Assembly: GCA_049997875.1 (NCBI GenBank)
Contig: JBEKRC010000003.1
Coordinates: 18,725-82,724 of the forward strand
Length of the DNA: 64,000 nt
Direction of reading: 5' to 3'
DNA from: Minisyncoccia bacterium
GTDB taxonomy: Bacteria; Patescibacteriota; Minisyncoccia; UBA6257; 2-01-FULL-56-20
Under the pieces are notes generated by a model. It did not search any database, was not told the origin of the DNA, and saw only the letters and a program-made list of their open reading frames with translations. A program made the translations under genes and the position numbers. Positions 18,900-19,039 of the stretch are shown here, in pieces; within the stretch, counting starts at the first letter, position 1; each line of letters begins with the position of its first letter.

Positions 18900-19039
18900 G
18901 GAATAACAATACCCTTGAAAGGGACGGCGTCATTTTCTCCGGCGGGAAAATGCGCCTCTCTCTCGCCACGGCAAGCAACCTGAAGGTTGCTTCAAGCCGC
19001 CGTGGCTCCGAGACGCCCTTTCAAGAGTATTGTTATTCC
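18900..19039 (-). repeat. structured inverted-repeat element, copy 2 (inverted orientation)
   Basis: The 24-bp outer arms GGAATAACAATACCCTTGAAAGGG / CCCTTTCAAGAGTATTGTTATTCC enclose a core that is the reverse complement of the core in copies 1 and 3. Confidence 0.7.

Follow-up and report, generated by a model that had tools for sequence, protein, structure and literature searches.

A family of structured palindromic elements in CPR bacteria that probably behaves like the Rickettsia palindromic elements

Introduction

Several classes of small palindromic elements are known from bacterial genomes. MITEs are defined by terminal inverted repeats that are common to all copies and matched to those of a parent IS, together with target-site duplications. 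REPs measure 20-40 bp and carry a conserved GTAG/CGTC head; in REP/BIME-RAYT and IS200/IS605 elements, HUH/Y1 enzymes recognise the DNA as a folded single-stranded hairpin. IS200/IS605 elements insert beside a tetra- or pentanucleotide that is fixed, and their two ends do not form an inverted repeat. The Rickettsia palindromic elements (RPEs) are hairpin repeats of 100-150 bp that lie between genes and also in frame within housekeeping genes, where they encode a conserved peptide that is tolerated (PMC10969869). No transposase is known for RPE-1 to RPE-10 (PMC10969869).

The present work concerns a stretch of DNA of 64,000 nucleotides, called the window throughout. A sequence-only reading had described two copies of a structured element in it, the second of which (copy 2) is the subject of this study, and had suggested that the outer stem of copy 2 arose either through an insertion mechanism generating local inverted repeats or through co-option as a terminator or insulator whose stem evolves freely. 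We find that the element has relatives mostly in Patescibacteria, where it apparently represents a previously uncatalogued family of small mobile hairpins; our literature search found no description of such an element in CPR.

Results

Copy 2 is a real element, although the limits first given for it, 18900-19039 with a 24-bp repeat, were one base off at each end: the unit spans 18899-19040, and its arms of 25 nt each are 96% complementary, with one C.A mismatch on the plus strand, and enclose a core of 92 nt (Table 1). Within the 5' arm of the closing stem P1, the outer ~15 nt are lineage-specific, and the family shows partial conservation of the inner ~10 nt. The folding energy of copy 2 was -81.2 kcal/mol on the plus strand and -85.5 kcal/mol on the minus strand, compared with about -40 +/- 3.6 kcal/mol for its shuffles (z about -11). 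As the sequence-only reading had it, the core is the reverse complement of the core of copy 1 (108 nt at 84% identity, matching 12371-12478), the outer stem is different from the unrelated 32-bp stem of copy 1, and the element sits between a hypothetical gene and a STAS gene, both on the minus strand, in a gap that we measured at 326 nt.

Related genomes were fetched with the 120-aa hypothetical protein as an anchor. Where the window has copy 2, relatives carry a small GC hairpin with a T-rich run behind it, and the minus-strand T-rich run of copy 2 aligns with that run. The slot between the gene for a PD-(D/E)XK nuclease and that for the 120-aa protein is itself variable, the STAS gene being replaced in close relatives by unrelated small genes (L131:9472-9897, L132:9459-9911 and L134:9663-9917).

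Table 1. Positions in the window of copy 2, its parts, its neighbouring genes and the other copies of the element.
Feature	Position	Strand	Remarks
Copy 2, whole unit (closing stem and core)	18899..19040	.	aligned orientation +; better-folding G-rich strand, -
Copy 2, closing stem P1, 5' arm	18899..18923	+	AGGAATAACAATACCCTTGAAAGGG
Copy 2, closing stem P1, 3' arm	19016..19040	+	CCCTTTCAAGAGTATTGTTATTCCT
Copy 2, helix P2	18926..18956	+	conserved loop CTCCGGCGG at 18937-18945
Copy 2, short helix P3 (CTCTC/GAGA)	18959..19013	+	encloses hairpin P4
Copy 2, P3 conserved segments	18960-18965; 19006-19013	+	CTCTCG; CTCCGAGA
Copy 2, hairpin P4	18965-19006	+	conserved 3' bulge CAAGCC at 18993-18998
Flank 3' of copy 2	19041..19052	+	TGTTGTTCTTCT; matches the host flank of the tRNA-Glu site in L267, TGTTGTTTTCTC
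T-rich run directly after copy 2 (minus-strand reading)	18883..18898	-	GTTTTTATGATTTTTT
STAS-domain gene	19183..19536	-	upstream neighbour of copy 2; PF01740
Conserved 120-aa hypothetical gene	18494..18856	-	downstream neighbour of copy 2
Copy 1	12351..12506	-	156-nt unit, own 32-bp stem; 4 nt past MacB-like stop codon
Copy 3	45864..46018	-	divergent core, fold as in the others; abuts the 3' end of tRNA-Glu
Copy 4	54205..54352	-	flanked by a 1065-aa ORF in divergent orientation and by the tRNA-Thr(tgt) promoter

Copies 3 and 4 add to the two listed by the earlier reading, which makes four in 64 kb. A motif pattern common to all of them (CTCCNGCGG..CTCG..CTCCGRGA) had 4 matches, against 0.00 expected in shuffles, and all four adopt one fold with z-scores near -10, in which a long P1 closes a junction with P2, a short P3 and P4 (bulge of 6-7 nt); compensatory changes are found in every helix already among these four. 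The cores of copies 1, 2 and 4 and of a copy in the relative L267, described below, are 79-87% identical in a star-like manner, and the sole stem shared among them is that of copy 2 and the L267 copy. The core of copy 3 is 44-53% identical to those of the other window copies. The 1065-aa ORF beside copy 4 has DNA polymerase III alpha as its counterpart in the relative L268.

A covariance model (R1) built from the four window copies was used to filter chance matches from a genome scan; the matches listed by the first scan of species-representative genomes were mostly GC-rich chance matches, from which the model separated the true relatives. At least ~100 full-length relatives were recognised (E 1e-16 to 1e-4) in CPR genomes and in groundwater and peat metagenomes, most of them in Patescibacteria (Saccharibacteria, Paceibacteria/Parcubacteria and Magasanikbacteria). 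Among the genome matches listed were Saccharibacteria, Magasanikbacteria, Vogelbacteria and other Parcubacteria or Patescibacteria, as well as two MAGs labelled Omnitrophota and a few that were unclassified or oddly labelled, and the metagenome scan gave about 75 further copies, many from 0.1-µm groundwater filtrates. The window itself comes from a CPR bacterium of Paceibacteria/Minisyncoccia type found in peat. Rfam 15 gave no match at gathering thresholds for the element in the window or in 21 related loci, nor at E<=10 for copy 2 or one copy of the long form described below. Phage records and viral contigs yielded one weak partial BLAST match (E 0.03) and 12 pattern matches, all of which were rejected by the covariance model.

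The fold of the element is under strong selection. In an alignment of 29 sequences both sides change in 38 of the 42 pairs, 89.9% of the cells are paired, and the covariation score is 0.746, compared with 0.19 for shuffles and ~0.1 for slid partners; every helix covaries. P1 closes a three-way junction of P2 (loop CUCCNGCGG), P3 (CUCUC/GAGAG) and P4 (3' bulge CAAGC), and four unpaired motifs are conserved, namely the P2 loop, CUCUCG, the P4 bulge and CUCCGAGA. Two short variants, with a core of about 85 nt and a long copy-specific stem, occur at L268:2789-2873 and 7939-8023; they are devoid of the P2-loop motif and of the CAAGC bulge and keep CTCTCG..CTCCGAGA. No copy was found with the bulge and without the loop. 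Because the two motifs are lost together, and the bulge never occurs without the loop, this pattern suggests that they touch in a tertiary contact.

The closing stem measures 5-53 bp (median 19) in 84 distinct copies, and the median for the entire element is 145 nt (~100-220 bp overall). These 84 copies have 84 different closing stems, in which the inner ~10 bp alone are semi-conserved, and no stem was common to two loci, in agreement with the copy-specific outer stem claimed earlier; a single terminal repeat shared by all copies, which marks a classical MITE and would have overturned that claim, was searched for among them and not found. The only pair within one contig to share a stem lineage lies at L200:4738-4849 and 5959-6071, 1.2 kb apart, with related stems and a compensated change (CATATG/CATATG vs CGTATG/CATACG). 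At six or more loci we observed a long form in which the element (138-148 nt) occupies a fixed position within a conserved shell of ~180 nt (L211:150-480, L200:4640-4965 and 5860-6082, L089:4060-4363, L104:4725-5050, L260:2930-3260, L228:5095-5400 and L103). The shell has AAGAAAACCGTCTCGCAGGCCGAGCGGGCA.GGTG on its 5' side and CGAGCGAGGCCGAGAGCGAGCGCAAATTCCTCGCTGGGGAATTTGATAGCG on its 3' side and is closed by another copy-specific inverted repeat; it could represent either two nested elements or an ancestral unit of larger size. Profile searches with E>0.2 only led us to reject the right flank of copy 2 and a rod-like hairpin at 60332-60507 as relatives of the shell.

That rod, a nested hairpin whose outer arms of 20 nt are 95% complementary (-101.8 kcal/mol, z about -7), had no relation to the element family by the covariance model or the shell profiles, and it is possibly a second kind of hairpin element. 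Elsewhere in the window, a full-length AdoCbl (cobalamin) riboswitch lies at 3575-3724 on the minus strand (68.8 bits), and a 576-aa ORF (51476-53206), whose orthologs in relatives carry fn3/Ig-like domains, contains three to four tandem repeats at 52141-53118 with a period of about 282 nt.

Presence of the element varies between close relatives. In four relatives whose anchor protein is 68-90% identical, 81 kb of syntenic DNA held no copy, and copy 1 is a clean 156-nt presence/absence difference with respect to L131, L132 and L134. At the corresponding site these relatives have a stop codon, 2-9 nt and then aaaggtcgt; the window has the stop codon, taaa, the 156-nt unit with both of its arms and then aaaggtcgtt. 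The three empty sites contain neither arm and no palindrome, and comparison of filled and empty sites leaves room for no repeat longer than AAA (3 nt), in A-rich surroundings. No target-site duplication was visible at the tRNA-Thr or tRNA-Glu sites, and the flank profiles of the copies gave no target consensus.

The history of copy 2 is illuminated by L267, a relative with a PBP2 that is 93% identical. The copy that lies just after tRNA-Glu in L267 bears the stem of copy 2 (AGGAATAACAAATGCTCTTGAAAGGG vs AGGAATAACAATACCCTTGAAAGGG, 25 of 26 nt) and has identical bases beyond the stem as well (TGTTGTT.., ~12 nt of 3' flank). The two copies are ~89% identical overall, and 12 of their 15 differences make up six compensated events, one of them a symmetric one-base indel in the arms. 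Because the stem of copy 2 and its flank recur at another locus in L267, the stem is carried by the element rather than made at the insertion site. The insertion mechanism proposed in the sequence-only reading, which would generate local inverted repeats, is at odds with this recurrence and with the empty copy 1 sites, which lack arms and palindrome. The element moves as one unit, closing stem included, and at times takes a few flanking bases with it. In both genomes the host sequence beside the tRNA-Glu site is TTGT.TTT.., and for this reason copy 2 probably derives from a copy after tRNA-Glu and brought ~12 nt of flank along. The arms had no other match in the sequences compared, and, with both arms absent from the empty copy 1 site, a local origin of the arms was rejected.

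Whole-unit mobility does not explain the near-identical cores with unrelated stems of copies 1, 2 and 4. Gradual drift, local duplication, homogenisation and captured phage sequence were considered, and none of them explains similar cores with unrelated stems; within-genome homogenisation of the cores was rejected because the window copies resemble each other no more closely than they resemble the L267 copy.

Insertions recur at hot spots, namely the borders of tRNA genes and positions just after stop codons; the median distance of the copies is 12 nt past a stop codon and 94 nt ahead of a start codon. The site after tRNA-Glu holds the divergent copy 3 in the window and the copy 2 lineage in L267 and is empty in L268. 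Three copies with mutually unrelated stems lie upstream of the tRNA-Thr(tgt) promoter, one each in the window (copy 4), L267 and L268; their left junctions agree to within 2 nt between the window and L267, and in the window and L268 there are 4-6 nt between the right junction and the promoter. Between rplL and tRNA-Val, L268 has a short variant, and the window and L267 have a hairpin with a common centre and unrelated arms. In the window this hairpin (50305-50362, 27 bp, imperfect) has the centre CATTTyGyCGACTTCGTCTTCGCAGGAGGyG, also found in L267, where the outer arms are unrelated, and holds CGCAGGAG, the reverse complement of the P2-loop motif. Its reading as a decayed copy is speculation only and was rejected, the model score of 8 bits not being significant.

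Downstream of tRNA-Glu we also observed a hairpin-rich, conserved non-coding stretch (window about 45660-45860, L267:11880-12138 and L268:13100-13200). It opens with an inverted T-arm of the genome's own tRNA (GGGATTTGAACC in the window, GGGAATCGAAC in L267) and includes GGGGTCGGGGAAAC..GTTTCCCCG; a search against Rfam at gathering thresholds, in the window and L267, gave nothing, there was no tRNA call, and the stretch may be a so far unannotated RNA gene of the opposite strand. The inverted T-arm-like box covaries with each genome's own tRNA, and it is a host feature because it is present also at the empty L268 site.

Clustering of ORFs near the copies exposed reading frames that run through the element, and 7 of the 84 distinct copies (~9%) are intragenic. 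At five Saccharibacteria-type loci from 5 species the element lies within MnmA, between the ATGHYVR and KDQSYFLW motifs; both sides align with solved structures, and about 50 query residues stand where the solved chains have 7, so that the element amounts to an insertion of ~43 residues relative to those structures. RecG, UvrA and RF-1 each contain one copy in frame. Within essential genes the element survives in one orientation only and mostly in one codon phase: all coding copies have a single orientation, three of the four genes have the same phase, and all seven copies are open in the host frame and keep the frame downstream. The encoded peptide, ~43 residues long and hydrophilic, has the pattern ..GTGR.SAPAA..LDSR..GDQARR.SE.FRT in three unrelated hosts, and four such peptides had no NCBIfam or Pfam match at E<=10. 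Even between species with MnmA proteins of only ~50% identity the coding copies keep the fold, and the G-rich, better-folding strand is antisense to the mRNA. Such upkeep of the fold exceeds what a dead insertion would need and could reflect a function at the level of the host or of RNA.

Orientation relative to neighbouring genes was random in the 84 copies (28 vs 25 and 24 vs 25); a bias seen in the first ~25 copies was gone with the full set. On the aligned strand A.C mismatches outnumber G.U pairs, both in the core helices (87 vs 44) and in the stems (53 vs 29). With RNA parameters 70 of 84 copies (p 4e-10), and with DNA parameters 73 of 82 (p 1e-13), have the better fold on the complementary strand, which is partly an effect of composition (GC skew -0.115 on the aligned strand); with that reservation, a folded DNA strand would be a more natural reading than an mRNA structure. 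A T-tract follows the element in 14 of 79 cases on the aligned strand, a modest enrichment over the control window (4 of 79), and in 9 of 79 on the other strand (11-18%). A consensus terminator scan found none at copy 2, a hairpin so large that it falls outside the stem and loop limits of the scan.

Discussion

We consider it probable that the element belongs to a mobile family of structured elements resembling the RPEs. As an explanation of copy 2 as a whole, its membership in a mobile palindromic element family of CPR is the reading that we favour, with reasonable rather than high confidence. Under this reading the element would behave as selfish DNA of the RPE type, its conserved unpaired motifs and junction would be the recognition site for a putative trans-acting enzyme, and the mobile or recognised form would be a folded single strand, most likely the G-rich one (minus for copy 2) and possibly single-stranded DNA. 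This last part, a folded single strand acted on by an enzyme in trans, is put forward tentatively. At its present site copy 2 would have no dedicated function, except possibly that of a terminator hairpin for the STAS transcript. Clustering of ORFs revealed no recurrent protein family beside the copies, nor any transposase-like family recurring within 3 kb of them, and no autonomous version of the element was found. A more radical and rather improbable possibility is that the three-way junction is an active device, a hairpin replicator that is excised, copied and re-inserted by ordinary host enzymes and whose closing stem is regenerated by self-templated (snap-back) synthesis from sequence 5' of the core on the folding strand. 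If true, it would explain the near-identical cores with unrelated, near-perfect stems and the flank carried by copy 2, as well as the reuse of hot spots and the absence of a dedicated transposase in minimal genomes.

Other explanations have to be weighed against the mobile family. Long perfect duplexes are substrates of RNase III-type enzymes, and the element could be a family of functional structured RNA genes whose product is freed by cleavage in the closing stem (e.g. by RNase III), which would leave the sequence of that stem free. The deep conservation of the unpaired motifs, the very strong covariation across phyla, the joint loss of the P2-loop motif and the P4 bulge in short variants, the upkeep of the fold even within coding genes and the position of several copies next to tRNA genes would all be in keeping with an RNA. 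However, G.U pairs are as rare as A.C or rarer, which is unusual for an RNA family, the units are oriented at random to host transcription and contain no conserved promoter, copies come and go between close relatives, those in coding genes keep the frame without stops and have their better-folding strand antisense to the mRNAs, and there is no Rfam relative; we regard such a gene family as unlikely. It is also improbable that the element is a terminator or insulator that the host has co-opted to end transcription units or keep them apart, the hairpin alone being what matters. The median distance of 12 nt from stop codons, two opposed copies between convergent genes in L052, the modest T-tract enrichment and the placement of copy 2, with its own minus-strand T-run, at the site of its relatives' hairpin and T-rich run speak for it; on the other hand, 80-90% of the copies have no T-tract, the scan was negative at copy 2 (within the size limits given above), divergent promoters flank some copies (copy 4, L268) and essential genes contain others, and termination needs no conserved three-way junction with invariant loops. 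Because orientation is random and T-tracts are rare, this is not a family of terminators, and the earlier suggestion of a terminator or insulator with a freely evolving stem fails for the family, ~9% of which is intragenic. For copy 2 alone it stays plausible, given the T-rich run and the replacement of the relatives' hairpin, and this copy may serve as the terminator hairpin of the STAS transcript.

Three further explanations concern the stem and the coding copies. The stem could be generated at insertion, through inverted duplication of the target or through entry of a stem-less core into existing host palindromes, as the near-identical cores and unrelated stems of copies 1, 2 and 4 might indicate. 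The element at the tRNA-Glu site, which lies between the T-arm of the tRNA and the inverted T-arm-like box, and the tRNA-Val hairpin, which has the same centre and different arms in two close relatives, point in the same direction. Yet this is contradicted for copies 1 and 2 by the empty copy 1 sites without arm or palindrome and by the occurrence of copy 2's stem at another locus in L267, and the T-arm box is present at the empty L268 site and lies outside the element's own stem, which makes generation at insertion very improbable. Still less credible is that the arms are captured foreign, spacer-like sequence and the hairpin a precursor of a sequence-specific memory or guide: the unique duplexes of 20-30 bp around a constant scaffold have that appearance and two of four 20-mers from the arms of copies 1 and 2 match viral contigs exactly, but this rate equals chance (~0.3 expected per 20-mer, calibrated from 12 chance matches), the two other 20-mers and all three 22-mers had no match, the arms of coding copies are ordinary codons of the host protein, and there are no associated protein genes. 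We give equally little credence to an intron-like intervening sequence that is removed from transcripts. Although the element interrupts conserved genes, adjoins tRNA genes and is a compact unit closed by a helix, its seven coding copies are open and preserve the frame, three of the four independent host genes have it in one phase with a conserved peptide (a same-phase peptide pattern whose chance without translation is estimated at about 3e-4), and the core, which falls well short of a group I or II intron in size, has no Rfam match.

The mobile family remains our preferred reading, and it would matter in several ways. Few known genomes are as small and streamlined as those of CPR/Patescibacteria, which are commonly regarded as repeat-poor. 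A structured mobile element spread over several of their classes, turning over between close relatives, returning to the same hot spots and lodged in frame in essential genes, would add a new player to the evolution of these genomes. Such an element would also provide, for the first time outside Rickettsia, a clear parallel to "selfish DNA inside protein-coding genes", and the covarying junction, invariant loops and replaceable stem would offer handles on the mobilisation of the whole class of elements. A covariance model of the family would improve CPR annotation by flagging spurious ORFs and explaining insertions of ~45 residues in conserved proteins.

Among known systems, MITEs such as Correia/NEMIS, ERIC, RUP, BOX and Nezha are likewise small, non-coding, multi-copy and mostly intergenic, with stable hairpins and presence/absence polymorphism; unlike them, the CPR element has termini that differ from lineage to lineage around a conserved centre, and no target duplication was seen. 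The strand asymmetry of the CPR element would fit recognition as a single-stranded DNA hairpin, as in REP/BIME with RAYT and other IS200/IS605-derived systems, and we mention this as a lead only; unlike in those systems, no Y1 or RAYT gene was seen near any CPR copy. Integron attC sites, which offer another comparison, are recombination sites recognised by structure and not by sequence, as folded single strands, and usually lie just after a gene. However, attC conserves the R''/R' boxes at the base of its stem and varies in the centre, whereas the CPR element does the reverse; the RYYYAAC/GTTRRRY boxes of attC are absent from it, and its copies are dispersed among housekeeping genes without cassette arrays.

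The RPEs offer the closest parallel. Both are palindromic, hairpin-forming repeats of 100-150 bp in small, reduced genomes that lie between genes and also in frame in unrelated housekeeping genes (here MnmA, RecG, UvrA and RF-1) with a conserved peptide that is tolerated, and no transposase is known for either. They differ in that there is no sequence relation between them, the peptide of the CPR element having no NCBIfam or Pfam match, and in that its hosts are mostly Patescibacteria of several classes and not Rickettsia. Moreover, the CPR element has a covarying three-way-junction core within a lineage-specific closing stem, and ~9% of its copies are intragenic compared with nearly half in some RPE families. 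By analogy, then, the CPR family would work in the manner of the Rickettsia palindromic elements, to which it is unrelated in sequence.
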